Below are positions 192-59,372 of a DNA stretch of 64,000 nt, piece by piece. The stretch is from Trueperaceae bacterium (GTDB lineage: Bacteria; Deinococcota; Deinococci; Deinococcales; Trueperaceae). Below the pieces are notes generated by a model. That model was not told the DNA's origin, ran no database searches, and saw only the letters and a list, made by a program, of their open reading frames with translations. The DNA lies in the NCBI GenBank assembly GCA_965215565.1, contig CBDCDZ010000004.1, positions 1,280,001 to 1,344,000 of the forward strand, in the 5' to 3' direction. Within the stretch, counting starts at the first letter, position 1. Each line of letters opens with the position of its first letter. Position numbers and translations under genes: made by a program.

Positions 192-448
192 TAGCAATTA
201 ACCTAAGTACTGATTGGAATAGCGCAAGTCTCAGCCGTAGCCATCCCGCTCTCAGGCAAAGCCTAGCGGGACGGCTTCGCCTGAGAGCGGGATTTCATTC
301 TCAAATGTGCGTGCTGCTTTCTGAAAGCCCGTAGGGACGAAGTTTTCGCAAAGCGAATGACGTAGTTTGCCGTTAAGCAACGGTGTTCTACATCGTGAGA
401 GCGTCTCTTCGCATAACTTCGTTCACTCAAACCAAATGATACTTGCTA
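192..448. repeat. MITE-like dispersed repeat, copy 1 (longest, with extra hairpin inserts)
   Basis: Starts TAGCAATTAACC and ends CAAACCAAATGATACTTGCTA. Near-identical to 3106-3302 apart from inserts. Confidence 0.9.
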
Positions 449-724
449 TAATTCCCTGGGCACTAGGCTTAGGGCACGACTTCGATATCGCTGCTGGCCT
501 GCAAGCTAGCATTGACGCTTGGTACCGAGTTGAACCCCGCTTGCCTCCCTTACACGAACGTCCCGATCCCATCGACTACGCCTTCATCTCCTACCTGCAA
601 AACCTCGACAATAAGGACATCCACCGTTTCCGCCACCTTCCAGACTCGCCCGACTTCCCCACTAGATACATCGTCGGCTTCCTAAGATGGGACACGACCC
701 CGAAAGAGCGTCGACCTTACATGC

Positions 725-960
725 TCACGGCTCACCTTTACGCCTCGAGTCTGTAACCCAACACTCGTCCGGGCATAGTAGACCTGGCGCTACCGGATGA
801 CTGGGGCGCGGCGGCGCACCTGCTACGACATCACGCCAGAACGACAGGGTGAGTACAAGTTGGTCTTCTAGGCATAGAGCAGGTGGTCTACCGCTTCGCT
901 TTTTGACGTCTTCTCTGTCTCTAAGTGCTTCTCGCATCTTCTTAAATGTCTGCTTCTTGA
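725..960 (-). pseudogene. IS5-family (IS702/ISL2-like) transposase N-terminal remnant
   Basis: KKRSGRPPALCLEDQLVLTLSFWR resembles the HTH_Tnp_4 motif GRP..L..EDQL.LTL.YWR. Truncated. Confidence 0.6.
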
Positions 961-1325
961 CGCCCAGCTTGTGACCGCAGGAAATCCTTTAGGGCGCTTG
1001 AACTTAGCTGAAGACAGGCTTAGGCTCCGTTTCGTTTGCTCGCGCATCTCTACAGTTTGACACAGCTTCTCCTATTTTCGCCGGAGGTCTAATCAAATGA
1101 CGCAGCGATAAGCCGTAGCTCAACCTCAAAAAGAAGCTATGCCCCGGCTCCCCGACGTAAGGCTTGGAGCGGAAGGGTAGAACTTGCACTTCAAGAAAGA
1201 TACCTCAAGATTGAGAAGGCTCTGTTTCCAGAATTTGGTATTTGTGGTAGTATAATAATATACATGAGTTGTAACGCAACCCTAAAAAACAGCAGTTTCT
1301 TAAATACTGTACATTGACTCTAAAT

Positions 1326-2321
1326 ATGACAATGGATGACATTAGACAACCCGTACAGGGTCTCCACCACATCACCGTCATGGCGAGTGACCCGCAACGC
1401 AACATCGACTTTTACACGCAGGTCTTAGGGCAGAGGATGGTCAAGACGACGGTCAATTTTGATGACCCCGGCACCTATCACCTCTACTATGGCGACGAAG
1501 TCGGCACGCCGGGTACGATCATGACCTTTTTCCCGTGGTTACACGCGATGAGAGGTGAGGTAGGCAATGGGGAGACGACGGCGGTGGCGTATGGGATTTC
1601 GGAGGATTCGCTCGAGTATTGGCAAACTAGACTCCACGAGCACGAGGTTGACTTCGAGACCATCACACGTTTCGGCAGCGACGGACTCAGCTTTGCAGAC
1701 CCCGACGGGCTGAGGCTCGAGCTTATCACCCAAGAGGGCGCGGATGTACCGCATTGGACAAATAGCCCTGTTCCGCAAGAACACGCCTTGACCGGCTTTC
1801 ACGGCGTGACGTTGTGGCTCTCGAGCAAGGACGCCACCGAAGACCTCTTGCTGAATCACCTGGGTTTTAGCAAAGTCGGCGAAGAGGATGATGCGGAGGG
1901 AAAGCGGACACGTTATGAGGGTGACGCAGATAGTGACTCAGGCGGTGTCGGGCTCTTTATCGACGTTGTGGAGCGCCCCGGCAAGTTTTCTGGACGCTCC
2001 GGCGCGGGCACGGTGCATCACATCGCGCTGCGCACGAGGAACGATACGGAGCAGCAAGCCTATCTAGACTACTTGCGCGAGCAGGGTCAGCATGTCACGC
2101 CCGTGCAGGACAGGCAGTACTTTCACTCCATCTACTTCCACGAACCCGGCGGCGTGCTCTTCGAAATTGCCACCGACGCGCCCGGCTTTCCCGACGACGA
2201 AGCGGTAGAGCGGTTGGGAAGCGAGCTTAAACTACCCGAGTGGCTCGAGCCCCACCGCGCCCAAATCGAAGCGAAACTGCCCGAGATTCGCAATCCCGAG
2301 TATGATGAGGTGACACCGTGA
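1326..2321 (+). CDS. Ring-cleaving dioxygenase / glyoxalase (MhqO-like, two VOC domains)
   Basis: GLHHIT, KTTVNFDDPGTYHLYYGD, GTVHHIA, DRQYFHSIYF.EPGGVLFEIATD motifs. Confidence 0.93.
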   Translation: MTMDDIRQPVQGLHHITVMASDPQRNIDFYTQVLGQRMVKTTVNFDDPGTYHLYYGDEVGTPGTIMTFFPWLHAMRGEVGNGETTAVAYGISEDSLEYWQTRLHEHEVDFETITRFGSDGLSFADPDGLRLELITQEGADVPHWTNSPVPQEHALTGFHGVTLWLSSKDATEDLLLNHLGFSKVGEEDDAEGKRTRYEGDADSDSGGVGLFIDVVERPGKFSGRSGAGTVHHIALRTRNDTEQQAYLDYLREQGQHVTPVQDRQYFHSIYFHEPGGVLFEIATDAPGFPDDEAVERLGSELKLPEWLEPHRAQIEAKLPEIRNPEYDEVTP

Positions 2322-2331
2322 AGGTCATCTT

Positions 2332-2976
2332 GTGAGTCAACTTCATGAACATCAAGAGGTTGTCAGGGCGGGCAAATCTTTAGAAGAGGCGGACGCTGCC
2401 ATTATTGTGATTCATGGGCGCGGCGCTACGGCGCAGAGCATGATTCCGCTGGCGCAAGCCCTAAACGCTGAACATCTAGCCATCCTCGCGCCCCAAGCCG
2501 CCAACTACGAATGGTATCCGCAACGCTTCACCGCGCCCAAAGCGCAGAACGAACCTTATTTGACTTCGGCGCTGAGCATGCTCACGCAGCTTGTCGCTAC
2601 CGTGAACGATGCAGGGATTGCCAAAGACCGCCTTATCCTCTCGGGCTTTTCGCAGGGCGCGTGTTTAACGAGTGAATTTGCGGCGCAGAACCCAGCGCGT
2701 TACGGCGGGCTGCTCATCTTTAGCGGTGGGTTAATTGGCGACGGACCGGAAGTATACGAAGAGAAGTACGGGGGCTCCTTGGAAAGTACACCTGTCTTCA
2801 GCGGCTGTAGCGACCGCGACCCGCACATCCCTCTTACGCGCGTGCAGGAGACGACGCGGCTTTTGACCTCTTTGGGAGCGGACGTGACCGAAAAGATTTA
2901 TCCCGCGATGGGGCACACCATCAACGAGGATGAGTTGGTGCGGGCTAGAGAGGTAGTGGGACGTTTACGTCGGTGA
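2332..2976 (+). CDS. Phospholipase/carboxylesterase (MhqD-like)
   Basis: IHGRG, GFSQG nucleophile, DPH and MGH. Usual partner of the upstream dioxygenase. Confidence 0.9.
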   Translation: MSQLHEHQEVVRAGKSLEEADAAIIVIHGRGATAQSMIPLAQALNAEHLAILAPQAANYEWYPQRFTAPKAQNEPYLTSALSMLTQLVATVNDAGIAKDRLILSGFSQGACLTSEFAAQNPARYGGLLIFSGGLIGDGPEVYEEKYGGSLESTPVFSGCSDRDPHIPLTRVQETTRLLTSLGADVTEKIYPAMGHTINEDELVRAREVVGRLRR

Positions 2977-3105
2977 AGAAGCGCGTCTCTTAAATCTCGA
3001 GAATGAGAGAGAGAATAGAGAATGAGGCGTGTGACCTTCTACCTTCTCAATTTTCTCTTCTTGTCTCGCGAAGAGGTTGAACACGCATAGAGCGCATACA
3101 CACTA

Positions 3106-3302
3106 TAGCAATTAACCTAAGTATTGATTGGAATAGCGCAAGTCTCAGCCTGCTAAGGCTAGCGGGATTTCATTCTCAAATGTGCGTGCTGCTTTCTGAA
3201 AGCCCGCAGGGACGAAGTTTTCGCAAAGCGAATGACGTAGTTTGCCGTTAGGCAACGGTGTTCTACATCGTGAGAGCGTCTCAAACCAAATGATACTTGC
3301 TA
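3106..3302. repeat. MITE-like dispersed repeat, copy 2
   Basis: TATAGCAA...TTGCTATA ends. Body shared with 192-448. Confidence 0.9.
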
Positions 3303-3316
3303 TATAATCTACAACG

Positions 3317-3766
3317 ATGCCGCCTTTCTCCACCAAGCTCGAGGACCAACTCTGCTTCGCGCTCTACACCACTTCAAACGCGCTCACAAGGTTTTACCGC
3401 CCGCACCTCGAGAGGTTGGGCCTCACCTATCCGCAGTACCTGGTGATGCTCGCACTCTGGGACGAGGACAACCGCATAGTCAAAGATTTAGGAGCGCGGC
3501 TCGGGCTCGATTCGGGGACGATGACGCCGCTGCTCAAACGCTTAGAAGGTGCTGGGCTCGTGCGCCGAGCGCGCGACGCGCAAGACGAGCGGCGCGTGAT
3601 GATTTCGCTGAGCGCACAAGGCAGCGCCCTAGCCGCGCAAGCTGCCGACTTGCCGACGACGATTGCTAAGGCGACGGGTCTGTCTACCGCTGAGATTGGA
3701 GCACTCGTCGAACAGTTGGAAACAGTGCGGCGCAACCTAAAGGTCGCCATATCTGACGAAGATTAA
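3317..3766 (+). CDS. MarR-family regulator (OhrR-like)
   Basis: LEDQLCFALY with the sensing Cys, LTYPQYLVM, LDSGTMTPLLKRLE, DERRV. Confidence 0.92.
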   Translation: MPPFSTKLEDQLCFALYTTSNALTRFYRPHLERLGLTYPQYLVMLALWDEDNRIVKDLGARLGLDSGTMTPLLKRLEGAGLVRRARDAQDERRVMISLSAQGSALAAQAADLPTTIAKATGLSTAEIGALVEQLETVRRNLKVAISDED

Positions 3767-3889
3767 AGCCTCTAGCGAAAGGTTGTGCACAAGTTAATTG
3801 TTCGCCAAACCAATGTTTGAAAGGTGGAGGCTGGGTATAAAAGGTCTACGTTCTTACATATGAAGAACCCAATTTCCGAGGAGGAATTC

Positions 3890-4720
3890 ATGCCCTATAT
3901 TCAAGTTGCCACCGAACGAGACCACCCCGTCAACGTCTACTTCCAAGATTACGGCGAAGGCCCGCCCGTCGTGCTCATTCACGGCTGGCCCCTCAGCCAC
4001 CGCATGTGGGAGTACCAGATCAACGCGCTGACCGAGGCGGGCTACCGCTGCGTCGCGCTCGATAGGCGCGGTTTCGGCGAATCGGACAAGCCCTGGGGCG
4101 GCTACGACTACGACACGATGGCGAACGACGTGCATGAAATGATCAAAGCGCTAGACCTGCAAGACGCAACCCTAGCGGGCTTCTCGATGGGCGGCGGCGA
4201 GGTGGCGCGTTACTTTGGTCAGTTCGGCGCGGACCGGGTTTCTAAAGCGATGCTAATTAGCGCGGTGACGCCCTACATGCTCCAGACGGACGACAACCCT
4301 GACGGCGTACCGCAAGAGGTATTCGACGAGTTCATGGAAAACGTCAAGAAAGACCGGATTGCCTTTTTGGACACCTTCGGCAAGCAGTTCGTCAACTATG
4401 ACGATGGCGACTCCATCAGTGACGACTTGCTTCACTACAACAAGATGATCGCCGCGTTCTGCTCGCCTAGAGCGATGCAGCGCTGCATCACCGCGTTCGG
4501 CACCACGGACTTTCGCCCCGACATGGAGAAGATCACGGTGCCGACGCTGATTGTTCACGGCGACGCCGATGAGATCGTCCCGATCGGTGTGAGCGCGAAG
4601 CAAGCTGCCGAGATGATCTCCAACAGCCGCTTAGAGGTCATCGAGGGTGCACCGCACGGGCTTCAGTACACGCATACCGAGAAGCTCAACGAGTTGATGT
4701 TGGACTTTTTGCGCTCTTAA
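3890..4720 (+). CDS. Alpha/beta hydrolase, non-heme haloperoxidase/arylesterase family
   Basis: LIHGWP, DRRGFG, GFSMGGGEV, HGDADEIVP, GAPHG. RBS GAGGAGG before ATG 3890. Confidence 0.92.
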   Translation: MPYIQVATERDHPVNVYFQDYGEGPPVVLIHGWPLSHRMWEYQINALTEAGYRCVALDRRGFGESDKPWGGYDYDTMANDVHEMIKALDLQDATLAGFSMGGGEVARYFGQFGADRVSKAMLISAVTPYMLQTDDNPDGVPQEVFDEFMENVKKDRIAFLDTFGKQFVNYDDGDSISDDLLHYNKMIAAFCSPRAMQRCITAFGTTDFRPDMEKITVPTLIVHGDADEIVPIGVSAKQAAEMISNSRLEVIEGAPHGLQYTHTEKLNELMLDFLRS

Positions 4721-4735
4721 AAATAGCGTTGTGTC

Positions 4736-4772
4736 AAGGAGCGAGGGATAGCTTATCCCTCGCTCCTTTTTA
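4736..4772 (+). terminator. Intrinsic terminator
   Basis: AAGGAGCGAGGGATA-gct-TATCCCTCGCTCCTT stem followed by a T run, after the hydrolase stop. Confidence 0.85.
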
Positions 4773-4881
4773 TCTTTTAAGCTCGAGCCATGCTCCAAAC
4801 CTACTCTGAAAAGTCTCTTGCATTTAGAGTATCTTATACTGGTAGACCCCGCTGAAAAAGTCACAGAAGGAGGCAAATGTT

Positions 4882-4909
4882 GTAGGGGTGATTCATGAAT
4901 CACCCCTAC
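4882..4909. repeat. Perfect 28-bp GTAG-type palindrome (REP-like)
   Basis: GTAGGGGTGATTCATGAATCACCCCTAC is its own reverse complement. Confidence 0.6.
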
Positions 4910-5248
4910 GCCGCGCACTCCCTCGCTAAGAAAAATGATTGCGACTTTTCTAAGGTGGTGGGGCAGTGTTACCCATTACAAATGAGAAAAATATCACTGC
5001 AAAGGAGGCAACGTTGTATATGAGAGCGTTTCTATTCGTACCGAACGTACCTCGTGCACACCCTGTCAAAACGCAACCCCTCGGTCACAAATAGCGTCTT
5101 CTTCATTCAGCATGTATAGAATAAGGTTCTGTTCGCTCTCTTCCTCGCACTCTTGCTACGCAAATTCTTCACGTAAAATGAACGCGCTACGCTCCGAGGA
5201 AGCTTTCGGCACACTGACACGACTCTCGAAAAAACGAAAGGGATACCC

Positions 5249-6007
5249 ATGAAAAGCACCGCCCTCGCCCTTCTCTCCGCCGCTTGCCTCCTACTCAGCG
5301 CTTGCGACGCCCGGACCGAATCCGAAGTGACGGTAGAGACGGGCGCGTCCGCCTCGGCAGATAACCTCAGCACCGAAACGCGCGACGTCAGAGACTTTAA
5401 CCGCGTGCGCTTAGAGACCTTGGGTGACCTGAATATCACACAAGGTGATGAGGTCAACGTGGTGCTCGAGCTGTCTCCCAAATACGAGGGCGTCATCGAG
5501 ACCGAGGTGCAGGGCGACACCCTCGTCATCAGCAGTAACCGGCGCAACATGACCCAAATCAACCGTGACGTGCTGCGCTACGACATCACCATGCCGGAGC
5601 TTGAAGCGGTGACGCTAGACGGCTCGGGCGATATGAACGTGGGCAGCTTCAGCGCAGAAGATATCCTCTTAGCGGTAGACGGCTCGGGCGACATCGTAGC
5701 GGAGGACTTGCAGGTGGAGAGGCTCGAGCTAGCCATTAGCGGCTCGGGCGACGCACGTTTAGCGGGGCGCACGGACACCTTTATAGCCGGCATCGACGGC
5801 TCCGGCGAGATAGACGCCCAGGGTCTCCAGGCGCAGGAGGTCAGGCTCGGCATTTCGGGCGCGGGCGAGGCGGAGGTTTGCGCGCTCGTGGCGCTGGACG
5901 TCAGCGTGTCGGGCAGCGGCGACATCACCTACTACGGCGAACCGAGCGAGCCGAGCGTCGACATCTCGGGCGCGGGCAATGTAGAGGCGGGCGGCGACTG
6001 CCCGTGA
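5249..6007 (+). CDS. Lipoprotein with head GIN (DUF2807) beta-helix domain
   Basis: Lipobox LLSAC and repeated xGSGD/SGAG units. Confidence 0.85.
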   Translation: MKSTALALLSAACLLLSACDARTESEVTVETGASASADNLSTETRDVRDFNRVRLETLGDLNITQGDEVNVVLELSPKYEGVIETEVQGDTLVISSNRRNMTQINRDVLRYDITMPELEAVTLDGSGDMNVGSFSAEDILLAVDGSGDIVAEDLQVERLELAISGSGDARLAGRTDTFIAGIDGSGEIDAQGLQAQEVRLGISGAGEAEVCALVALDVSVSGSGDITYYGEPSEPSVDISGAGNVEAGGDCP

Positions 6008-7191
6008 GCGACGCCGCGCAAGCCGCGCCGAGCCGTGCGCCCTCCACCCTCATCGCCCCGACGCAGCAAAAAGACCGCATCATCACCTTAGACGCTCTGC
6101 GCGGCTTCGCGCTTCTGGGTGTGCTCATTACGAACATGCTCCAAGGCTATTCGTTTGTCAATACGCGAGTGGATGAGATAGTCGCCACGCTCATTCGCGC
6201 TTTCGCCGAGGGGAGTTTCTTCCCGATGTTCTCCTTTTTATTCGGGCTCGGCTTCGCGCTGCAACTGCGCAAGGGTGAGGCTGCGTTGCCGCGCTTTCGG
6301 CGGCGCTTGACCGTCCTCTTAGGCATCGGTCTCATCCACCTGCTGCTCATCTGGTCAGGCGACATCTTGTTTATGTACGCGGTCTTGGGCTTCGTGCTGA
6401 TCCTCTTTCGCAACAAGAGTGAGCGCACGCTCGTCATCACTGCGTTGACGCTGTGGCTCGGTATGACGAGCGTCCTTTCGTTTCTCGGCGGCGACGACCT
6501 CTTACCGGCGGCGAAGCCTGCCGAGGGTATCGCGCCCGTAGGCGACACCTACCTCTCGGCGGTCGTGGGCAGGTTGGAATTTTTTCCCATCAATCTCCTC
6601 AACCTCTTTTTCACCGGTCTCATCGTCCTCGCGCTCTTCATCTTAGGCTACCTCATCGGGTGTAGAGGTGTGCGGGACGTGCTCTCAAACAAGCGGTTTC
6701 TACGCCGCGTTCTCCTTATTTCGCTTCTCATTGCCGCGCCCTTTACGCTCTGGTTCTTAGGAGCGATTCCCATCTTCGAAGGGGCGAGTTGGCTGTATGG
6801 GCTCGAGTACCTCTTCGCCGGCCCCTTCATCGCCTTCGCCTACCTCGCAGGCTTGTCGCTCTACGCGAAACCTCTTGACACCTTCTTGAGACCCTTCGTC
6901 CCCGTCGGGCAGATGGCTTTGAGCAACTACCTCGGGCAGTCTTTAATTTGCACGACACTCTTCTACCCTTACGCTTTTAACCTCTGGGGTTTGGGCGCAG
7001 CCGCGACCTTGCCTATCAGCTTAGCGATTTTTGGCTTTCAGATTATTTTCAGCGCGTGGTGGCTGAGGCGCTACCGCTTCGGCCCGGCGGAGTGGGTGTG
7101 GCGAAGCCTGACGTACGGGAAAGTACAACCGCTCCGCCGGAGCGCGGACAATATACAAAAGGTCAAGTCTCACAAAAACAAAACCACCTGA
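6004..7191 (+). CDS. DUF418 (YeiB-like) membrane protein
   Basis: RIITLDALRGFALLG, FSFLFG, GDIL..YA, GQMALSNYL.QS, GPAEWVWR. GTG 6004 overlaps the upstream stop. Confidence 0.9.
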   Translation: MSDAAQAAPSRAPSTLIAPTQQKDRIITLDALRGFALLGVLITNMLQGYSFVNTRVDEIVATLIRAFAEGSFFPMFSFLFGLGFALQLRKGEAALPRFRRRLTVLLGIGLIHLLLIWSGDILFMYAVLGFVLILFRNKSERTLVITALTLWLGMTSVLSFLGGDDLLPAAKPAEGIAPVGDTYLSAVVGRLEFFPINLLNLFFTGLIVLALFILGYLIGCRGVRDVLSNKRFLRRVLLISLLIAAPFTLWFLGAIPIFEGASWLYGLEYLFAGPFIAFAYLAGLSLYAKPLDTFLRPFVPVGQMALSNYLGQSLICTTLFYPYAFNLWGLGAAATLPISLAIFGFQIIFSAWWLRRYRFGPAEWVWRSLTYGKVQPLRRSADNIQKVKSHKNKTT

Positions 7192-7494
7192 GCACATTTC
7201 AGGATCGAAGTAAGGTCAACAGCAGCGTTTGAGACTGCGAAACGCGCCCATCAGCCATTGTAGTTATCTCTACAGGGTTACTCCGCTCAGATTAAACGGA
7301 TTTCAACGCTTAATATCTTAAATGTCTATTGCGGTAGCTTATTGCGAATTTGACGTAACCTTGCGAAGGGAAGGTAACCAAACATATGATTTTCATGATA
7401 TAAACGTGAGAAACTTCACTTTGTTTCACATGAATATCTATGTCACTCTTGAACGTGCTGTTGCAAAATCCCAATCTATCCAGGAGGATCGTCG

Positions 7495-9333: not shown

Positions 9334-9348
9334 AACTTAGAAGTTGAT

Positions 9349-9382
9349 GAAGGGGCGCTCAGCAGTTTAGGGCGTCCCTTTC
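9349..9382 (+). terminator. Probable terminator hairpin
   Basis: AAGGGGCGCTC...GGGCGTCCCTTT directly after the stop. Confidence 0.55.
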
Positions 9383-10703: not shown

Positions 10704-10814
10704 TAGCGGTTATTAGAAGTATTAAATTGAAATAGCGCAGATATCATCCTACAATGTGCGTGCTAGTCGTTGTTCTATCATGTGAGATTGGCTCAAACCA
10801 GATGATACCTGCTA
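10704..10814. repeat. MITE-like repeat, short (about 111 bp) copy without cassettes
   Basis: TAGCGG start, AATAGCGCAGATATCAT...AATGTGCGTGC core, CTCAAACCAGATGATACCTGCTA end. Confidence 0.8.
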
Positions 10815-10874: not shown

Positions 10875-11030
10875 TAGCAGTTCCAAAACATACTGAGACA
10901 GATTACTGCAGGTCTCTGTCCGTAGGACTAGCGGGATTTCATCTCCGCAAGTGCGTGCCAGTTACGCAGTTTGCTGCCTAGCAACGGTAACTCGCATAGT
11001 GAGAATGTGAGAATGTCTCAAACCAGATGA
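10875..11030. repeat. MITE-like repeat copy whose right terminus is split by IS110 (remainder at 12157-12165)
   Basis: Runs TAGCAGTTCCAAAACATACTGAGAC...CTCAAACCAGATGA. The missing TACCTGCTA is found on the far side of the IS. Confidence 0.88.
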
Positions 11031-11046
11031 ACTTAGTATAGAGTTG

Positions 11047-11985
11047 TCAAGCCCCCTTCCACCTCTGTGGGTGCTGCTGAGTGACTTGCAGCATGAAACG
11101 AAAGAGTTCTCTTGCGAGATAGGTTTTGAGACTTCTTAGAGCAGCCCGGCGGGTCTTGCCTTGCTGCTGTTTCTTGTCGAGATAGGCTCTTGTCGGTTCG
11201 CTGTGGCGCAGTCTGACTTGGGCAATCATGTGAAAGGTGCGGTTGAGCCGACGGTTGCCGCCGATGTTGAGTTGCCTTCTCTTCTGACCACCAGAAGAGC
11301 GCTCGACAGGCGCACAACCTGAATACATGGCAAAGGCGTGTTGTGAACGAAAGCGTCGGATGTCACCTGCTTCAGCAAGTAGCGTGGCGGCGTGAACGAC
11401 GCCGACGCCAAAGACCTCTAAGAGTTCAGGCATCAGTTCGTCAACGAGGGCTTTCATCGCCTGCTCGAGCGTCTTGAGTTGTTCTTTAAGCACTGCAATA
11501 ACGGCTTCGACGGCTTGGCGAGCCACCTCTAGCTCAAGGCTCGCTAAGCTCAGCTTGTGCGCTGTAAGCTGTTTAGCTAGCGCTTCTCGGGTGCGGGTCA
11601 GATGTTTGAGGTCTTCAACCGCTTGCCGAGGTGCAAACGTAGTCAGCTCAGGATTAGCCAAAGCAGCCCGAGCTACGTTTTCAGCGTCTACCTCATCACT
11701 CTTCTTGCGTCCTCTTTTGCTGCGGTACTGACTCGTCAGACTCGGACTAATGTCCACAACCTTATGGTCCTGCCCGAGCAACGCTTGACTCAACCTCCGA
11801 GCAAAGGGGTTATTCGCCCCTTCAATAGCGCACCGCTGAACGTCATAGCGCTTTATCCAGTGCTCCAAAGTTGCCAAGCCCTCAGCCGTATTCGTAACGG
11901 TGCAGTGACCTAATACCTTGCCCTGTTTATCTAACGCTGCTGCGGTATGGCTCTGCGGATGTGGATCAACCCCTATAATGACCAT
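11047..11985 (-). CDS. IS110-family DEDD recombinase (transposase)
   Basis: IIGVDPH, AIEG, KSDEVDA (DEDD), coiled coil, GVG, FAMYSGCAP..RSSG (Tnp serine), GNRRL. RBS AAGGAGG. Confidence 0.96.
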   Translation of the reverse strand: MVIIGVDPHPQSHTAAALDKQGKVLGHCTVTNTAEGLATLEHWIKRYDVQRCAIEGANNPFARRLSQALLGQDHKVVDISPSLTSQYRSKRGRKKSDEVDAENVARAALANPELTTFAPRQAVEDLKHLTRTREALAKQLTAHKLSLASLELEVARQAVEAVIAVLKEQLKTLEQAMKALVDELMPELLEVFGVGVVHAATLLAEAGDIRRFRSQHAFAMYSGCAPVERSSGGQKRRQLNIGGNRRLNRTFHMIAQVRLRHSEPTRAYLDKKQQQGKTRRAALRSLKTYLARELFRFMLQVTQQHPQRWKGA

Positions 11986-11994
11986 ACAACCTCC

Positions 11995-12145
11995 TTAGGT
12001 TGCTGCTCACGGTAGCTGCTTATCCGTCTATGAGGCTACTAAGCGTCTTAGTATCAGGCAAGCTCCGTGTAGCTTAGTGAGCGAGGTGTGCAGTTCATCT
12101 GTTAGCCCTAAAGCTGATACTTGCTGGGCATCACCTCGCTTCTCT
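11995..12145 (-). ncRNA. Predicted IS110 bridge RNA (target-binding and donor-binding loops)
   Basis: Two stem-enclosed loops (12080-12140 and 12008-12069). Each holds two guides that match the insertion target or the circle junction. Exact RNA ends are unknown. Confidence 0.85.
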
Positions 12146-12185
12146 TAATATACGGATACCTGCTAAGGTGTTAGACTCAGGACTT

Positions 12186-19684: not shown

Positions 19685-19875
19685 TAACGGTTCCACAACA
19701 CACTGAGACAAAGTGTCACAGGTACCATCTCAGAATGTACGTGCGAATTTCTGAAAGCTGCGCAGCAGTCTGAAAGCCCGCAGGGACGGAGTTTTCCGAT
19801 TACGTAGTTTTTGCGCAGCAAAAGGAAACGGTGCTTCGTGTAGTGAGAGCGTTTCCGACCAGATGATACCCACTA
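19685..19875. repeat. MITE-like repeat, diverged copy
   Basis: Contains CACTGAGAC, CTGAAAGCCCGCAGGGAC, GTGAGAGCG and ACCAGATGATACC, shared with other copies. Confidence 0.8.
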
Positions 19876-38782: not shown

Positions 38783-38893
38783 TAGCACTTCCAAAACATA
38801 CTGAGACGGAGCGCCGCAGATATCATCTCCGAATGTGCGCGATAGACAGCGTTTTTTACAGTGAGAGCGTCTCAAACCAGATGATACCTGCTA
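38783..38893. repeat. MITE-like repeat, short copy
   Basis: TAGCACTTCCAAAACATACTGAGAC...GTGAGAGCGTCTCAAACCAGATGATACCTGCTA. Confidence 0.88.
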
Positions 38894-38987: not shown

Positions 38988-39156
38988 TAGCGAGTACGCT
39001 TGGAGCCGAAACGGTTATCATTCACCATGAGACCGAAATGACACTTTCTGCAAGCTGCGTAGCAGACGAAGTTTTGGCAACGCCAAAGGTTTTACCTGAA
39101 GTGCGCGCTATATACCTTATCGACTCGTATCGTCCCCAACTAAACGATACCTGCTA
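38988..39156. repeat. Degenerate MITE-like copy directly upstream of clpP
   Basis: TAGCGAGTA...GATACCTGCTA ends. Contains GAAGTTTTGGCAACGCCAAAGGT, also at 59235-59257. Confidence 0.65.
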
Positions 39157-39795: not shown

Positions 39796-39796
39796 G

Positions 39797-42880: not shown

Positions 42881-43195
42881 AAGGGTAGTGTAGCAAGTTA
42901 TTGGTAGAGAGATAAGCGGTAAGGCGAAGAGAGCAATGAGTTAAAAGCAATCCAGTTGTACCCGAAGGGCACAGGGCTGGTTATGTAATCCAGTCAAGCT
43001 GGTGGCTTTAGCTTCCGCTTACAAAGTTTTCGCAAAGGCGAAAGGAACGAACGGTCTTGCGAAGCAAACGAACGGTGAGCAACGAGTGAAAAGCTTTTGA
43101 CTTTAACTTTCAACTCATTGCTCGTTGCTCGATACTCTTGTTTACCTTTGTGCGTACACCGCGCTCTAAAAATAGTTCACGGTCTATAATGAGCT

Positions 43196-47205: not shown

Positions 47206-47207
47206 GC

Positions 47208-50730: not shown

Positions 50731-51443
50731 GGAAAGAGCGCGCCTTGACGCGCGAGGATGAACACGTCGGTGCTGAGCCCGATGACGAGGTGGAGGATGA
50801 CGGGATAGAGGAGCGACCTACCTCTCAGCGCTAAGACGGCGAAGAGGAGTCCGGCGGGCAGCGCGGCGAAGGTCTCGGCGGGCGGCTTGCCTAAGTGAAC
50901 CAGCGTCGAGGCGAGGGCTTGCGTCCAGATGGCGGCGGAGAGACCCCACACAGGCTCGATGACACGGAGCATGAAGCCTCGGTAGAAGAACTCGAACGAC
51001 ACGTAGTAGAGCCCGTAGAGGAACACCCAGGACAAGAGGTTGAAGGGCGACGCGCCGACCCACGCCCCCGCCCAGGGATAAGTGAGTTGCAGTGATGGGT
51101 CCGTGCTGCCGAGCGCCATTATGACAACCGCGACGAGCGAGGCGACGAGCGTGACGCTCACGCCGAAGCGCCAGTTGCCGAGCCCGAGCCCAACCTTGCG
51201 TAGTGAATCGCCCAAGCCCAGCATGAGCCCGGCGGGTAGCAAGAGCAGAAAGACGAGCGCCGTGCCTATGTTGAAGAGCGCGGTGGGCAAGGTGCGCGGT
51301 GTGTCTCGGAGGAGCTGCGGACCGGGACTGCCGAGATACCAGTAGGCGATCTGCAAAAGCGCCGCCATCAGGAGGTAGAGCGCGAGTTTGCTCCTGAACA
51401 GCGCGGCTAAGTCCGCGAAGAGGAGGCGCAACGAGGTCATCAT
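50727..51443 (-). CDS. CPBP (Abi/CAAX protease-like) intramembrane protein
   Basis: EFFYRGF, H.GKP..E, H motifs. Multi-TM. Confidence 0.85.
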   Translation of the reverse strand: MMTSLRLLFADLAALFRSKLALYLLMAALLQIAYWYLGSPGPQLLRDTPRTLPTALFNIGTALVFLLLLPAGLMLGLGDSLRKVGLGLGNWRFGVSVTLVASLVAVVIMALGSTDPSLQLTYPWAGAWVGASPFNLLSWVFLYGLYYVSFEFFYRGFMLRVIEPVWGLSAAIWTQALASTLVHLGKPPAETFAALPAGLLFAVLALRGRSLLYPVILHLVIGLSTDVFILARQGALFP

Positions 51444-51450
51444 AAAACGT

Positions 51451-52566: not shown

Positions 52567-52632
52567 ATGGACGCAAGCATACCGCATGGGGTTGGGGGTG
52601 TCGCGCGCCGCTCGAGCACGGGACATGAGCGC

Positions 52633-52663
52633 AAAAAAAGGGATGAGGTCAGAGCCTCATCCC
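52633..52663 (-). terminator. Intrinsic terminator after the SPT-like gene
   Basis: Minus strand GGGATGAGG-ctctga-CCTCATCCC followed by TTTTTTT. Confidence 0.8.
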
Positions 52664-52744
52664 GCACGCTTACACTGTCTTTTCTGAGCCACAAGGCTCG
52701 AGTCGCCCCAATCAGCAGCGTTCTACTGCCAATTTCAACGAAAC

Positions 52745-54082
52745 TCAGACAATAACGCCCAAACGCCTACCGACGTCCGAGAACGCCTCTAACAACCTGT
52801 CGAGTTGCTCGTCGGTGTGGTTCGCGTTGACGCTGGTGCGAATGATGCTCTGCCCAGCAGGAACGCCGGGCGGGAGCGCGGGCGTCGTGTAGACGCCCTC
52901 TTCCCACAACCCTTTCCAGAACATCATCGTCAGGTCGTCCTCACCGATGAGCACGGGCACGATGGGCGTTTCTGAGCCCATTGTGTCGAAGCCGAGCGTG
53001 TCCATGCCGCGCTTTAAGCGCGCCACGTTGCGCCAGAGCTTAGCGCGGTGCTGCGGCTCGTCACGCATGATGTGGAGCGCTTGCAGCGCCGCCGCCATCT
53101 GCATCGCGGGCAGCGCCGCCGTGAAGATAAAGGGGCGCGCCTTGTGCTTGACCCAGTTGACCACCTCGCGGGGTCCCGCCATGAAGCCACCCACCGAGGC
53201 GAACGACTTGGAGAACGTACCGATGACGAGGTCAACCTCGTCCTCTAAGCCGAAGTGCTCCGCTGTGCCGCGTCCGTTCGCGCCCAGCACACCCGTCGCG
53301 TGAGCGTCGTCCACGACGATGCGCGCGCCGTAGCGCTTTGCCAGCTTGACCAGCCCCGGCAAGTTGGCGATGTGACCGCTCATCGAGAAGACTCCGTCGG
53401 TGACGATCATGCGTCCACCCGGTTTGTCGGCGTCTTTTTGCAGGAGCCGCTCTAAGTCCTCTAGGCTGTTGTGCTCGTACTTGCGGAGCGTGCCGAACGA
53501 GAGCCGCGCGCCGTCATACAAACAGGCGTGGTTCTCGCGGTCGAAGTAGAGGATGTCCTGGCGTCCGGTCACCGCGCTCAGCACTGCGAGCGAGCCCAGG
53601 TAGCCCGCGCTGAAGGTAAGCGCTGAGCCCGCGCCGAAGAAGTCCGCGAGCTGACGCTCCAACTCCTCGTGGAGCGTCAGGGTACCGGTGAGAAAGCGCG
53701 AGCCTGTACAGCTCGTGCCGAAGTCGCCGAGCGCCTCTTTCGCCGCCTCTTTGAGCCGCGCGTCCTGGGTGAGCCCTAAGTAGTCGTTCGAGCCCGTGAT
53801 GACCATCTCGCGCCCGTCCACGATAACGGTGCCACCCTGCTGCGACGCGATCGCTTTGAAGTAGGGGTGCATCCCCGCCTCCGCCGCTTCGTCCGCACGG
53901 GTAAAGTTATACGCCTTGCTGAAAATGTCGGCGGCGCGCTCGGCGGGCCTATCCAAAACGCTGCTGCGCGCCGTACTCCCTTGTACGTTCGCCCTTGCAG
54001 GTTTTTTTACGGTCGATTTTACAGATGGCTTCACGCTCGTTTTCGCATCTGTATTCAGTATGTTATCCACAGCGTCTGACAA
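52745..54082 (-). CDS. Alpha-oxoamine synthase, serine palmitoyltransferase-like
   Basis: GSNDYLGL, GTSCTGSRFL.GT, NHA, DGVFSM, DDAH, GTFSKS (PLP Lys). Likely TTG start at 54082 after GGAGG. Confidence 0.8.
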   Translation of the reverse strand: MSDAVDNILNTDAKTSVKPSVKSTVKKPARANVQGSTARSSVLDRPAERAADIFSKAYNFTRADEAAEAGMHPYFKAIASQQGGTVIVDGREMVITGSNDYLGLTQDARLKEAAKEALGDFGTSCTGSRFLTGTLTLHEELERQLADFFGAGSALTFSAGYLGSLAVLSAVTGRQDILYFDRENHACLYDGARLSFGTLRKYEHNSLEDLERLLQKDADKPGGRMIVTDGVFSMSGHIANLPGLVKLAKRYGARIVVDDAHATGVLGANGRGTAEHFGLEDEVDLVIGTFSKSFASVGGFMAGPREVVNWVKHKARPFIFTAALPAMQMAAALQALHIMRDEPQHRAKLWRNVARLKRGMDTLGFDTMGSETPIVPVLIGEDDLTMMFWKGLWEEGVYTTPALPPGVPAGQSIIRTSVNANHTDEQLDRLLEAFSDVGRRLGVIV

Positions 54083-54324
54083 AAGACCCTCCAACTCACG
54101 TCCTAAGCAACGATGCGCCACTCTAACATGGGTTTGCCCGGCGCGCTCTACTTCGGTGAATCTGAGCGCGTAGGCGTGTGCATAATGAGTCGCGAATGAG
54201 TGTATAAAGATAAATCGGAACCTGAGTCTGTGCGCCAACCGCAGTTTGAGCCGTCGCTCAAGTTCCGCACCATAGTTGCCCATCCTACCTCGTATCACTC
54301 TGGCGTAAAGGGCTTGGGCAACAT

Positions 54325-55475
54325 GAGGTTGCACGAAAAGTCGGTTGAGTAGAAGAGAGGGGTAAGAATGGTTTACGACGAACAACCCTTACCCCAAAGC
54401 GAGTTTACTGGATAGACGTTGCCCTAAGTGCGAGATAAGGAAGCCTGAGAGTGGCAACGGCAGGGCGGCCTGCCCGTAACGCGGCTACCGCATCAGGAAA
54501 CACCGAGATGTAAACGGTATACGTGAAGAGAAAGTGTTGCGTGTGCGCTGTCAGCGGTGCAAAGGCAGCTTGGGGTGTGTTTACCCAGAGGGTGTCATGC
54601 GCTATAAGTGGTACAGCCGAAAGGTGGAGGGTATCTTTGCCATCTTAGATGTGCATCAGGTTGATGAAAGCTGCGCTGCTGAGGTAGCCGAGCACTTAGG
54701 TTATCCAATTCAGAGCGAAACTCGCGCCTCATGGCAAGGGACACGCGCTCTAAGAGCCGAGCGGCTAGAAGAGAAACAGGCAAAGCCCACTAAGCTCAAA
54801 GCCGCGAGCATAGACGAATTCAAACTAGGCGAGTGGTGGATGTACACGCTTACTGATGTTAAATCTCAAGCCGTTATGGACTACCGCCTATGCGAGAACC
54901 GTGATGAAGAGGTGGTTCGTGAGCTTATCGCTGCACACAACCCTAAGCTGATCATCAGTGATGGGTGTAAGAGCATCCAAGCGGCGTGTGAATACTTCGC
55001 TGACAAGCCGCATGGACGCTGTTGGTTTCACATCATCGAAGAGGTCTTGAAGCAGTTCCCCAAGAGAGAGCGTGAACTCGTGGCGCTTGATCTGCGTTTC
55101 TTGTATACCTGCACGAACCTCAAAGATGCAAGGTGGTTTCTAGGCGTCCTCACCGCTCGCTACGGCGCAACCCAGCTCGAGCCGCTACTGAATGCCTGGA
55201 CGCAGCTTGAATTCTACTGGCAGTACAAGGCGATGCCCTTGACCAACAACGCTTCGGAAACCCTTTATAGCGCTCTATGGTCAAGAAACAAAAAGCGCGT
55301 TGTCAAAGCCTTCCACCGCGCTTTGGACTGGTTCAAAGAAGCCCGCTATAGATGGCATCATCACCTCATTCGCAACAAGTCTCCCTGGCAACGCTTCACC
55401 GGACAACCCAGCAAGCCCTGGCTCAAAGCGCTCCTCACTCCTCTGAACTACTCAACCGACTTTTAGGGGTGTCTC
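54325..55475 (+). mobile_element. Insertion sequence with a Mutator-like (IS256/ISH6-type) DDE transposase
   Basis: 17-bp perfect IR AAAAGTCGGTTGAGTAG (54336-54352 / 55448-55464). Both putative ends begin GAG. No TSD seen. Confidence 0.8.
54366..55466 (+). pseudogene. DDE transposase with in-frame stop in the N-terminal zinc-finger region
   Basis: CPKC (54420) and CQRC are in frame but separated by TAA at 54477. SIDE, IISDG, CWFH, TNNASE motifs. Confidence 0.7.
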
Positions 55476-55651
55476 GAATCTCCGGCGTTTTATGGGGCGG
55501 TTCTGACAACACATTTGTATTCAGCCCTATGTCTGGTATTGAGAGAGATTTTGGTAAACCTTTCACGGTAAAATAGTACGGAGTTGTTGAACAGCTCCCT
55601 TCGGTCCGATGGTCAATTTATTGGGTCTTCGTAAACAAGTAAGGAGTCACC

Positions 55652-56083
55652 ATGCTAAAGTTTCTCTTACCACTTATTCTTCTGCTCGCACTTAGTGCTT
55701 GCGATGGCGGCCGTACAGTACGTGAAGTAGGCCTCATTAGCTCTTATGGAGCTACAGAAGAGGTCATCCTCGCGCCTGATACAGTTCAGGCAGGTGAAAC
55801 GTTTACAGTCACCGTTCAAACCTACGGGAATGGTTGCGTAGAAGCCGACGATGTGGAAGTTGCGATTACAGACAACTTAGCCATACTTACGCCCTATGGC
55901 CTTATTTCAATTCCTGGCAGAAATGAGGCCTGCCCAGAAGTTGAAAGACGACCCGAACACACTTCTCAAATCGTCTTCGAAGAGCCGGGTTCGGCAACGT
56001 TGAGGGTAAGGGGGATGCTAAAAGACAACGCTAACCCCGAGGGCGTGATGACGACTATCGAAAGGACTATTCAAGTGCAGTAA
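55652..56083 (+). CDS. Hypothetical lipoprotein (paralog 1)
   Basis: Lipobox LSAC. Shares TYG.GC and PGRNEACP with the next gene. RBS AAGGAG. Confidence 0.8.
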   Translation: MLKFLLPLILLLALSACDGGRTVREVGLISSYGATEEVILAPDTVQAGETFTVTVQTYGNGCVEADDVEVAITDNLAILTPYGLISIPGRNEACPEVERRPEHTSQIVFEEPGSATLRVRGMLKDNANPEGVMTTIERTIQVQ

Positions 56084-56131
56084 GCTGAGTAGTTTTGCGC
56101 AGCGCTAAGCTTTCGAAAGGGTGTGAAATCC

Positions 56132-56575
56132 ATGAAACGCTGGCTCCTTCTTTTCTTAATCCTGTTGCTCGCCGCTTGCGACGGCAGCCGCGTGGAACGC
56201 GAAATAGGTATTATCGAATCTGACACCTCTTTAGGAGAGGAAGTCATCTCGGCTCCTATGACGGTTCAAGCTAGCGTACCTTTCGAAGTTATAGTGCGAA
56301 CCTATGGTGGTGGTTGCATAGAACCTGACGGGTTAGAAGTCGAGATAGAGGGAAATGTAGCCGTTCTTGTTCCCTATGACCTCTACATCACACCCGGCAG
56401 GAACGAAGCTTGCCCCCTCATTTTTGAAGCCGAGCCCCACGCTGCACAGTTGACATTCAATGAGTCAGGCTCAGCAACGATCAGAGTCAGTGGGCGCAGT
56501 GAGAGCAACACAGATGTGACAGGAGGCGCGACGTATGGTCAAGCGGTTTTCGAGAAAACAATTACCGTAAAGTAA
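56132..56575 (+). CDS. Hypothetical lipoprotein (paralog 2)
   Basis: Lipobox LAAC, TYGGGC, PGRNEACP. Confidence 0.8.
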   Translation: MKRWLLLFLILLLAACDGSRVEREIGIIESDTSLGEEVISAPMTVQASVPFEVIVRTYGGGCIEPDGLEVEIEGNVAVLVPYDLYITPGRNEACPLIFEAEPHAAQLTFNESGSATIRVSGRSESNTDVTGGATYGQAVFEKTITVK

Positions 56576-56655
56576 AACAGACTAAGCACGAGGAAGAGGT
56601 AGTGGACACGGCCCCCCTACCTCTTCCCCTTTTCACGGGCTGTTACAATACCCCC

Positions 56656-57729
56656 ATGAGCGTCCGCCCCGAAGTCCTAGCCGCCCCTGCGTATCACTTT
56701 TCCGCCAAACCCTACACGGTCAAGCTCGATCAAAACGAGTCGCCTTACGACTTGCCCAGTGAGCTTAAACGAGAGGTGTTGACGCGGTTAGAGCGCGTGC
56801 CCGCCAACCGCTACCCCGAACTCGCGGGCGAGTCGCTCCGCGCCGCCTTAGCGCAGCGGCACGGCTGGGATGAAGCGGGCGTCGTCGTGGGGGGCGGCTC
56901 GAACACGCTGGTTCAGGCGTTCGTCATCGCGTGCGGGCTAGGGCGGCGCGTCTTGAGCGTCACGCCGACCTTTTCTGTCTACAGCTTGTGCGCGAACCTC
57001 TTGAACGCCGAGCTTACTGAGGTGCCTTTAGGGGAGGATTTTGCGCTGCCCACCGAGGCACTTAAAGCGGAACTGCAAAGAGGTCAGGGCGTCCTCTTTC
57101 TCGCGGTCCCCGCCGCGCCGACAGGCAACGTGTTCGTTAGAGCGGACCTCGAAGACCTCATCCGGGCGGCTGCGCCGAACTGGACGGTGGTTTTGGACGA
57201 GGCGTACTGTCAGTTCTCTCAAACGGACCTCTCTCACTTCGTGCGCACCTATCCGCACGTCGCCTGTTTGCGCACCTTGAGTAAAGCGTTTGGGATGGGC
57301 GGCGTACGCTTAGGCTTCGCGCTCGCGCAGCCCGCGTTGGCGGAGCAACTGCAGAAGGTGATCATGCCCTTTTCCGTTTCGTCACTGCAACTGGCAGTGG
57401 GTCTCACCGCGCTGGCGCACCCTGACTTCGTGGCGGCTCGAGTGACGGAAACACTGCGGGAGCGGGAGAAACTCGCTTCAGGTTTACGAGCACTCAACCT
57501 CCAAGTCTTCCCTTCCGAGGCGAATTTCCTGCTCTTCCGCGTGACGGACGCGCCCTCCTTTTACGAGGCGCTTTTAGCGCGGGGCGTGCTGATTCGGCGG
57601 CAGGACCACCTGCGTGGTCTCCACGGCTGTCTACGCGTGTCGGTAGGGACTCCGCAGGAGAACGCGGTGTTTTTAGAGGCGGCGAGGGATGTTCTTTCGA
57701 AACAGGTGCAAGAGGTTTCAGGTGGCTAG
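56656..57729 (+). CDS. hisC: Histidinol-phosphate aminotransferase
   Basis: KLDQNESP, NRYP, PTG, DEAY, RTLSKAFG..G.RLG. Adjacent to hisB/hisH. Confidence 0.93.
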   Translation: MSVRPEVLAAPAYHFSAKPYTVKLDQNESPYDLPSELKREVLTRLERVPANRYPELAGESLRAALAQRHGWDEAGVVVGGGSNTLVQAFVIACGLGRRVLSVTPTFSVYSLCANLLNAELTEVPLGEDFALPTEALKAELQRGQGVLFLAVPAAPTGNVFVRADLEDLIRAAAPNWTVVLDEAYCQFSQTDLSHFVRTYPHVACLRTLSKAFGMGGVRLGFALAQPALAEQLQKVIMPFSVSSLQLAVGLTALAHPDFVAARVTETLREREKLASGLRALNLQVFPSEANFLLFRVTDAPSFYEALLARGVLIRRQDHLRGLHGCLRVSVGTPQENAVFLEAARDVLSKQVQEVSGG

Positions 57730-58306
57730 AGAAGCGAGCATTAGAAGGGAAACGAAGGAAACGCGGCTCGAGGTCTCCCTCAACCTAGATGAGGGGGCGA
57801 GCGGGGGCGCGAACACGGGTCACGGCTTTTTGAACCACATGTTAGACCAACTCATCCGCCACGGCGACTTCGCACTTACGGTGCGTGGAGAGGGCGATTT
57901 GGAGGTGGACGTGCACCACTTGGCGGAGGACACGGGCATCACTTTGGGGCAGGCTTTTCGCGCTGCACTCGGCGAGCGGCGCGGCATCGAGCGTTACGCG
58001 GACGCCTTTGTGCCGATGGATGAGACGTTGGCGCACGTCGTCTTGGACTTTTCGGGGCGTCCCTACCTCGACTTCGAGCCCGCGGGCTTCGAGGGCGACG
58101 CGAACGGCTTCAACGTTCACCACCTACGCGAGCTGCTGCGCGGCTTCTGCGCCCACGCGGGCGTGACGATGCACGTGCGGGTACTCTCGGGTGTAGAGGT
58201 GCACCACGTGAGTGAGGCAATTTTCAAGGCGTTTGCCAGGGCGCTCCGCGAGGCGGTGCGCGTGACCTCGGAGACACTGCCCTCGACGAAAGGGGTACTC
58301 GAGTGA
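57722..58306 (+). CDS. hisB: Imidazoleglycerol-phosphate dehydratase
   Basis: R.TKET, HML, D.HH..ED.GI, PMDE, HH..EA.FKA, PSTKG. Confidence 0.96.
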   Translation: MAREASIRRETKETRLEVSLNLDEGASGGANTGHGFLNHMLDQLIRHGDFALTVRGEGDLEVDVHHLAEDTGITLGQAFRAALGERRGIERYADAFVPMDETLAHVVLDFSGRPYLDFEPAGFEGDANGFNVHHLRELLRGFCAHAGVTMHVRVLSGVEVHHVSEAIFKAFARALREAVRVTSETLPSTKGVLE

Positions 58307-58995
58307 CCTCTGCGTCCACACCCGAGACCGCCCTTCCGAAAACCGTCCTCATCGACTACGGCGCGGGCAACCTCCACAGCGTCCACAAGGCGCTCCTGCG
58401 TGCGGGGCTGAGCGTCACGCTCACCGGTGATCCTGACGAGGCGGCGAACGCGGACGCGCTCGTGCTGCCCGGTCAAGGGCACTTTCGTCAGGTGATGGAG
58501 GCGTTCTTGGCGTCCGGCTTCGAGCCTGTTGTGCGGCGTCACCTCGCCCAAGAAAAGCCCTTTCTAGGCATCTGCGTCGGCTTGCAGCTCCTGATGGAGC
58601 GCTCCGAAGAAGCGCCGGGCGTGGCAGGGCTGGGCGCGCTGAAAGGTGAGGTCAAGCGTTTTGACGACTCGAGCGTCAGCGTGCCCCAGATGGGCTGGAA
58701 CCAAATCTACCCGTACGGCGCTCCGCCCCTCTTAGAAGGCGTCCCTGCGGGCGCGTTCGTGTACTTCGCGAACTCGTACTACGTAGAATTTTCTGGGGAG
58801 ATAGACGCCATACCCGGCGCGACGACGCAGCACGGCGCGGTGACGTTTAAGAGCGCCGTGTCGCGGGGGCACGTGCACGCCGCACAGTTTCACCCCGAGA
58901 AGAGCCAGCACGTGGGGCTGCGCGTGCTGGAAAACTTCCGCAGGCTCGTCCACGCACATGTAGGTATGTCAGCAAATAACACCGTTTCCAGTTGA
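58303..58995 (+). CDS. hisH: Imidazole glycerol phosphate synthase glutaminase subunit
   Basis: DYGAGNL.SV, LPGQG, GICVG.Q, QMGWN, QFHPEKS. Confidence 0.96.
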   Translation: MTSASTPETALPKTVLIDYGAGNLHSVHKALLRAGLSVTLTGDPDEAANADALVLPGQGHFRQVMEAFLASGFEPVVRRHLAQEKPFLGICVGLQLLMERSEEAPGVAGLGALKGEVKRFDDSSVSVPQMGWNQIYPYGAPPLLEGVPAGAFVYFANSYYVEFSGEIDAIPGATTQHGAVTFKSAVSRGHVHAAQFHPEKSQHVGLRVLENFRRLVHAHVGMSANNTVSS

Positions 58996-59149
58996 TTCCC
59001 GTAGAAATTAACCCGAGCGTAACGAGTAAAAAGAGCTACGGATTCCGGTGAGCTTCACGGCGCACTTCCGCCTTTCGCATTTGCGAAAACGTTGTAACCG
59101 CAGAAGCGCGTAGTGTTTGCTGGTTGTGAAGTTTCATAACGCCCCTTAT

Positions 59150-59372
59150 TAGCAGGTATCATCTGGTCAGCTACACTCTCAGCGATGAGAACATCGTTCA
59201 GCACGCAACATACTGAGACGGATGAGCGCTTACGGAAGTTTTGGCAACGCCAAAGGTCTCAGCGAAGCTAGCGGGATTTCATCACCGAATGTGCGTGCTA
59301 GTTAGGCACTTTTCGTAAAGCGAAACGTCGTTTTATCTAGTGGGCGTGTCTCAAACCAGATGATACCTGCTA
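59150..59372. repeat. MITE-like repeat copy with perfect 18-bp terminal inverted repeats
   Basis: TAGCAGGTATCATCTGGT (59150-59167) / ACCAGATGATACCTGCTA (59355-59372). Confidence 0.9.

Follow-up and report, generated by a model that had tools for sequence, protein, structure and literature searches.

Elhai and colleagues are said to have described in 2008 the small dispersed repeats (SDRs) of cyanobacteria as dispersed repeats of 21-27 nt that show compensatory changes and nest in themselves and in minitransposons. Transposition of the IS200/IS605 and IS91 types is single-stranded, produces no target duplication, relies on strand-specific hairpins and places the element next to a fixed base. 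The best comparison for the elements treated here is SDR5, a 21-nt element whose function "remains unknown" (PMC13756078); it is described as inserted precisely between bases 3 and 4 of the HIP1 motif (PMC4390886) and, among HIP1-rich genomes, as reported from Nostocaceae only (PMC5861425). Here we analyse a 64,000-nt window (contig CBDCDZ010000004.1, C4:1280001-1344000) of the genome of a Trueperaceae bacterium (Deinococcota; G000, 4.49 Mb, chromosome 58% GC), in which copies of a MITE (miniature inverted-repeat transposable element) carry small hairpin cassettes. Two further carriers belong to the same genus (G001, G002) and one to another genus (G066), while G005 represents an outgroup genus. 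The cassettes are independently gained micro-elements that work like the cyanobacterial SDRs, outside the cyanobacteria and without HIP1. This kind of element is already known and mechanistically unexplained; what is new is its presence in a second lineage, and a literature search of partial coverage returned no report of SDR-like elements outside cyanobacteria.

The host element is a 111-bp MITE with imperfect 25-nt terminal repeats (TAGCAG...CTGCTA) that aligns at 360 places in the source genome; a strict full-length filter keeps 290 of these, a lower bound for full-length copies. Inserts in the 360 aligned copies cluster at backbone columns ~35, 40-43, 61-63 and 88, and their lengths peak at 21-25 nt and sums of these, bearing out genome-wide the discrete cassettes at fixed MITE slots that the initial annotation had noticed in the window. 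Among the full-length copies, 153 are bare and 137 are filled at four slots (A-D) in 13 filled combinations, 14 of the 16 combinations being present altogether. The inserts belong to four families (X, D, Y and Z), which also nest in one another and enter other repeats. X (21-24 nt) runs from T through TAC-GNA-GTT, a further T and a second stem-loop to a final A. On its opposite strand, D consists of TG followed by two 9-nt GNA-triloop hairpins with 1 base between them. Z, a twin hairpin, inserts into X at TT/ACG (a slash marks the insertion point throughout) and Y forms a single longer bulged stem. Their 5' starts are TT for X, TG for D, CTC or TTC for Y and TC for Z. On the G000 chromosome, twin 9-nt GNA hairpins occur 70 times; a Markov-3 control yields 4 and a reversed loop yields 8. 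The X pattern has 111 matches in the genome versus none for the reversed pattern. A further 27-nt hairpin (E) was seen to enter Y.

All sequences quoted in the initial annotation are present where stated (3142-3165, 10911-10934, 59255-59274, 3242, 10971, 19809, 339, 3215, 43024 and 59071-59090). Of the three cassette types it distinguished, the first corresponds to Y, while the second and third proved to be a single family, X, both types being preceded by a small hairpin (AC-GNA-GT) that had been overlooked. Its inventory also lacked family Z and the fourth slot, occupied by D in the window. The copies are listed below in window coordinates.

192..448 (+): 111-bp MITE backbone whose slots B, C and D hold 147 nt of inserts
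230..294 (+): slot B, three nested Y (Y in the reverse strand of Y in Y), the innermost at 251-271
318..379 (+): slot C, X holding Z (320-336) at TT/ACG, then a tandem second X (358-379)
405..425 (-): slot D, 21-nt D made of TG, a 9-nt GAA hairpin, 1 nt and a 9-nt GAA hairpin; SDR5-like
3106..3302 (+): MITE with Y in slot B (3144-3169) and X/Z/X in slot C (3193-3254); absent from the matching site of a related strain
10704..10814 (+): bare 111-bp MITE, four slots empty
10875..11030 (+): MITE with Y (10914-10938) and X (10962-10983); its right terminal repeat is split by an IS110 element and continues at 12157-12165
11031..12156 (-): IS110-family element in the MITE terminal repeat (NF033542, 171 bits, cut-off 140); context only
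19685..19875 (+): MITE with an 80-nt stack in slot C, two Z (19750-19768 and 19769-19785) in X and a second X in its loop (19800-19822)
38783..38893 (+): bare 111-bp MITE
39045..39086 (+): X with Z (39047-39065) in slot A; this MITE copy is divergent and ends near 39156
43019..43041 (+): X outside the MITE, within a heptamer-repeat hairpin family
59071..59095 (-): X-like cassette located in another kind of repeat; elsewhere, cassettes of this type nest in the X loop
59207..59372 (+): MITE with X in slot A (59230-59253), Y in slot B (59258-59278) and X in slot C (59302-59324); its left end is overwritten by an inverted MITE piece (59149-59207)

Filled and empty sites and their targets, which the initial annotation had left to be defined, were obtained from empty twins searched inside G000. 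Of the starts listed, which include chance matches, 133 of 224 for X, 87 of 105 for D, 80 of 138 for Y and 25 of 73 for Z have such a twin. X and D are inserted without target duplication; where an empty twin exists, the insertion lies directly 5' of an A in 186 of 190 cases. The simple X inserts (n = 103) form 14 context clusters, one probably due to chance; the next base is A in 100 of them, G stands at -2 in 10 of the 14 clusters, and several targets are the GN/A loop of another mini-hairpin. The D inserts (n = 87; 21 nt, or 22 with a tetraloop) form four clusters, GAG/ACA, GAT/ACC, GCT/ACA and TAG/ACG, all /AC, with A as the next base in 86 cases; their targets include the MITE terminal repeat and, in the opposite orientation, its left end. 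For Y, the simple insertion at CGCA/GATATCAT read earlier did not hold: Y swaps out one A after GCAGRT (GCAGRT/A/TCA), a motif common to slot B and the MITE terminal repeat, and also inserts into its own reverse strand. The independent mobility suggested at the outset is supported by the 14 unrelated contexts of X and the four of D. Occurrence in coding sequence was not confirmed, the matches there looking like chance and the genuine copies lying in non-coding repeats.

The claim that the paired stems covary was tested family by family. With cores picked by conserved flanks only and 1000 half-swaps as control, covariation is strong in Y (at least 3 bp in 29 of 32 distinct cores; no half-swap reaches the observed mean), modest in the second stem of X (11 of 15 cores; 22 half-swaps reach the observed value) and not significant in the first stem of D in a narrow set of 5 (106 half-swaps), counts that are not to be taken as probabilities because cassette copies are related. 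Among 32 D sequences of a broader set that had been filtered for pairing, G-C forms the second pair in 14, A-T in 17 and C-G in one. Overall, stems of 2-3 bp, mostly closed by C-G, carry GNA or GNNA loops, GNYA forms among them. D loops are GNA in 98 of 98 cases (by selection) and the first X loop is GNA in 130 and GNAA in 14 (n = 144); in Y, GNRA loops are common, together with the non-GNRA loops GCTA, GTCA, GACA, GCCA and GTTA.

When compared with fetched Nostocales sequence, the likeness to cyanobacterial SDRs proposed in the initial annotation holds for the architecture, and the G000 cassettes show the traits ascribed to the class, namely length, compensatory changes and nesting in themselves and in the MITE. 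When the D layout was placed in HIP1 split before its A (GCG/ATCGC) and GTDB was scanned, at least 125 loci were recovered; among the matches listed, 76 of 80 are Nostocales and 105 of 127 pair at all four free positions, versus ~0.5 expected. Three Nostocales genomes hold 43, 4 and 12 copies with none in the controls, and a 50-kb Nostoc plasmid piece contained no twin hairpins. One version of the first hairpin, AGC-GAA-GCT, is identical in both lineages. SDR5 and D share a length of 21 nt, precise insertion 5' of A without duplication and the order TN, 9-nt GNA hairpin, 1 nt, 9-nt GNA hairpin, a layout derived here from the fetched copies that may already be contained in Elhai et al. 2008. 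In contrast, D belongs to another phylum, starts with TG and sits at /AC sites instead of HIP1, which occurs 41 times in 4.39 Mb of G000; because the design matches but the HIP1 target does not, D is regarded as a variant of SDR5 and not as a member. The G000 system also differs by its companions X (1-base shift, longer second stem), Z and Y (bulged stem, replaces a base), and no genuine cassette copy was found in its coding sequence. A second family of twin-GNA 21-mers outside HIP1, which starts with TT and is followed by AA, was observed in G304 (99 copies) and G306 (127 copies), with 0 and 2 in the controls; this Nostocales family may be SDR4 or SDR6. Elements of 21 nt are too short for homology between the cyanobacterial and G000 elements to be told from convergence.

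In three families, base 2 of the element is complementary to base 2 of the target. For D (TG/AC) this was found at 90 of 93 sites in G000 and in 31 of 38 TG rows in G001 and G002. For the Nostocales copies in HIP1 (TA/AT) it holds in 100 of 127 matches listed, with the target fixed by the search pattern, and for the Nostocales TT family (TT/AA) in 116 of 150 rows listed, a hand count in which the pattern excludes AT and the element ends are deduced. Y1 enzymes pick cut sites by pairing with bases 5' of the hairpin, guide-cleavage-site pairing being a hallmark (PMC8266576; overview of the family in PMC6006769).

Among genomes, the X pattern matches 62 and 88 times in G001 and G002, compared with 111 in G000, and 0-3 times in 118 other genomes of the family. 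The D layout was found 103, 53 and 36 times in G000, G001 and G002 versus 10, 13 and 9 in the controls, most others of the 251 Deinococcota searched being near control. In G066 a D-type 21-mer is present at 20 of 20 fetched sites, 17 of them in slot C of one subfamily; of the other three, one follows a rearranged end and two, which have other stems, lie near slot D. In G020 (9% contaminated), 3 of 6 copies of the same MITE hold a different 18-nt hairpin in slot C, and a related hairpin occurs near slot D. The excess of pattern matches in G050 and G292 was dropped as cassettes, as their stems do not pair, no result draws on the unpublished genome G051, and 17 metagenome singletons of the D pattern were read as chance, their first stems being unpaired. 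In another Deinococcota genome, G284, the reversed twin-hairpin control gave 163 matches versus 2 forward, an abundant repeat that is unexplained.

Regarding the host, a 3' TA is present in 280 and a 5' TA in 214 of the 290 full-length copies, and the MITE is probably TA-bounded and of IS630 type, a label given because of these ends alone. No autonomous transposase with the MITE's ends was found in G000, which contains only IS630 remnants with other ends; a single copy of the 290 has an empty twin in G000, which is uninformative as to TA duplication. The contig of a related strain skips 3107-3312 of the window, an entire MITE copy, and conversely G000 lacks the MITE at sites that match MITE-bearing loci of G001 and G002; MITE DNA was matched in 6 of 41 genomes searched. 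The element resembles IS630-type MITEs in its TA ends, imperfect terminal repeats and absence at matching sites of relatives, whereas the cassettes themselves have neither terminal repeats nor duplications.

With moderate confidence, we propose that each cassette is a mobile element in its own right, 21-25 nt long and of the SDR kind, folded as single-stranded DNA (ssDNA) and joined 5' of A by a trans-acting single-strand enzyme. The insertion geometry, the repeated independent gain, the structure and the design common with SDR5 are directly supported; the ssDNA substrate and the element-target pairing are inferred. Each cassette would be recognized as folded ssDNA, by two tandem GNA/GNNA mini-hairpins in X, D and Z or, in Y, by a single longer stem with a bulge, excised or copied as a whole unit, and joined scar-free 5' of A in a short target by a putative cut-and-join enzyme, most likely HUH/Y1-like. 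The GN/A loop of another mini-hairpin would often serve as target, which could explain nesting, and X, which ends in A, would restore its own target and thereby form tandems. The MITE would supply several targets and its own transposition would then multiply the filled copies. The cassettes are like IS200/IS605 and IS91 elements in the absence of duplication, the strand-specific hairpins and the fixed adjoining base, and differ in being 21-25 nt long and non-coding. They share with REP/REPIN elements mobilized by TnpA-REP (REP-associated tyrosine transposase, RAYT) the short ssDNA hairpins and the many intergenic copies, although they lack the GTAG foot, have two tiny hairpins in place of one long palindrome and do not cluster around tnpA, and the RAYTs of G000 have palindromes of their own.

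A number of observations weigh against this proposal. The 21-nt intermediate is a postulated part of it, and ViennaRNA energies do not separate DNA from RNA. The base-2 pairing rule is a hypothesis from three families, the AA after the Nostocales TT family being a presumed target; exceptions exist (TG/AG in 6 of 38 rows in G001/G002 and 25 TT/AT in the Nostocales matches listed), X does not follow it, and Y replaces a base and has many loops that are not GNA. The G066 cassettes mostly represent one amplified subfamily. In G000, cassette variants follow backbone subfamilies to some extent (0.83-0.88 vs 0.75-0.77). Changes at slots C and D on the backbone tree (below) are fewer than in all 200 label shuffles, and therefore some of the spread is inheritance via MITE copying; on these two grounds, much of the cassette spread is MITE amplification. 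No enzyme tracks the cassettes across carriers. An intact, single-copy RAYT is placed between mutS and mutL and overlaps the start of mutL (C4:3590035-3590553, - strand; NF047646 73 bits, below the cut-off of 80; 78% identical to its G001 homolog), and its gene holds a double-foot GTAG REP of its own. Homologs were found in 6 of 21 genomes (G001, G020, G018, G014, G304 and G306), that is, also in the non-carriers G014 and G018, and were not found in the carriers G002 and G066, in G305 or in 12 other genomes of the family. G002 gave no match to NF047646 or PF01797; PF01797 (Y1_Tnp) negatives are weak because that search missed the RAYT, which was later seen by eye, and a motif scan for HUH proteins missed it likewise. 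It is doubtful that this RAYT is the cassette enzyme.

Other enzyme searches gave no better candidate. In the three same-genus carriers neither IS200 TnpA nor Y2 was matched, the positive control for Y2_Tnp being equally silent, and no paralog family adjoining cassettes was found in G000. Subtraction of the G005 proteome (52% of G005 covered) left 952 candidates, of which 281 low-GC ones among those listed were read by eye. An HUH-Y1 domain occurs in frame in a 1319-aa restriction-modification protein (C4:3784707-3788666, - strand); it was rejected as the cassette enzyme, as it was not found in G001/G002 and is present in G014/G018. After this protein come copies, also in frame, of a AACAAGGGG...CCCCTTGTT palindrome that is abundant, and the domain is probably the transposase of that palindrome family.

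Two alternatives concern how filled copies arose. Loss of cassettes from one long ancestor would account for the co-occurrence of B, C and D above independence (24 BCD copies), and a fixed order compatible with it had been named as the result opposed to mobility. Such an order is contradicted by the 14 of 16 slot combinations, the scatter on the tree and the bare outgroup copies. On a rough backbone tree of the 290 copies (106 columns), parsimony changes relative to filled copies are 19/21, 58/75, 49/76 and 47/61 for A, B, C and D (shuffled-label means 20.6, 66.7, 67.7 and 56.3), and a single gain would require 93-111 precise losses per slot. In the outgroup G005 (2.34 Mb) the MITE copies are bare and X/D/Y patterns number 2/0/0, versus 157/83/106 in G000; moreover, other genera fill the same slot with different families, and cassettes lie outside the MITE and in opposite orientations. 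Because of the tree scatter, the bare outgroup copies and the unrelated target sites, deletion is highly improbable. Rare insertions followed by MITE-to-MITE spread through gene conversion or homing on backbone homology would fit variants that are largely slot-specific and subfamily-tied, with one slot each accounting for 55 of the 103 twins of X and 55 of the 87 of D. Nevertheless, co-converted flanks are not seen at slots C and D, where mismatches 1-5 nt from the slot are not raised (0.109 vs 0.117 and 0.019 vs 0.058; next to slot B, 0.060 vs 0.031), this route includes no selection for stems, and X occupies 14 contexts, many of them singletons, two X sequences each being found in 3 unrelated ones. 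Backbones 98-100% alike differ by one cassette only, the same cassette sequence occurs in backbones 59-80% alike, and backbones at least 97% alike carry different variants; a resident MITE with and without a cassette was sought at matching G001/G002 sites, which gave MITE-present/absent pairs and no clean case. We regard conversion or homing as unlikely to be the main route.

The other two alternatives concern the joining step. Mini-hairpin oligonucleotides released by repair or replication might be captured at nicks by host ligase or topoisomerase without a dedicated enzyme, in keeping with the lack of a candidate that tracks carriers and with the exonuclease resistance and poor binding of single-strand binding protein described for mini-hairpins (PMC13037366). 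The fixed length and ends, the strict 5'-of-A geometry and the few genera concerned among 251 Deinococcota point instead to a specific, patchy factor, and host capture is considered rather unlikely. Reverse splicing or reverse transcriptase (RT)-templated insertion of a small structured RNA would agree with the strand-specific structure with some G-T pairs and the GNRA loops common in Y; a search of G000, G001, G002, G005, G050 and G066 for RVT_1 gave a match in G001 only, a multicopy RT, and consequently none in the carriers G000, G002 and G066. Rfam at gathering score had 0 matches in the window, and DNA is the better fit for stems of 2-3 bp bearing GNA triloops or GNYA loops. Both GCGNAGC and GCGNNAGC have very high stability as DNA and far lower stability as RNA, DNA GCGNAGC melting at 70-76 C and r(GCGAAAGC) at 39 C (PMC13037366). 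GNA/GNNA loops on 2-3-bp stems and the lack of an RT match in these three carriers therefore favour, indirectly, folded ssDNA over RNA as the cassette form, and an RNA-mediated route appears improbable.

Additional observations concern the surroundings of the cassettes. The IS110 element at 11031-12156, with ~9 copies in G000, sits at GA/T of the MITE terminal repeat, at most 1 base from the D and Y sites, and both halves of that repeat have short matches in its non-coding end, which are likely target guides of a bridge RNA. A second MITE of 103-104 nt lies inside slot C of the 111-bp MITE near C4 3659042 and in one further copy. Heptamer tandem repeats folded as long hairpins occupy ~105 intergenic regions of G000 (e.g., window 42900-43140), often with X inside; the genome also has two REP-like families and CRISPR repeats, a cyanobacteria-like repeat landscape. 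Contig C3 is an 11-kb unit repeated ~2x and probably represents a concatemeric assembly of a plasmid or satellite.

How SDRs move has been an open question since 2008, and a second, distant lineage with close negatives permits gene profiling for the enzyme, while ~300 paralogous MITE copies provide base-exact filled and empty sites. Three testable rules emerge: DNA-type GNA loops, insertion 5' of A and position-2 element-target pairing. An enzyme that joins a short folded oligonucleotide scar-free at a chosen site would, if found, be new biochemistry. More tentatively, the Nostocales SDRs and the Deinococcota cassettes might form one class of minimal ssDNA elements of ~21 nt, in which twin GNA hairpins would be the enzyme signal, the first two bases would guide targeting by pairing, and one enzyme would be shared by both lineages; if so, this class would represent the smallest programmable, scar-free DNA insertion system known.

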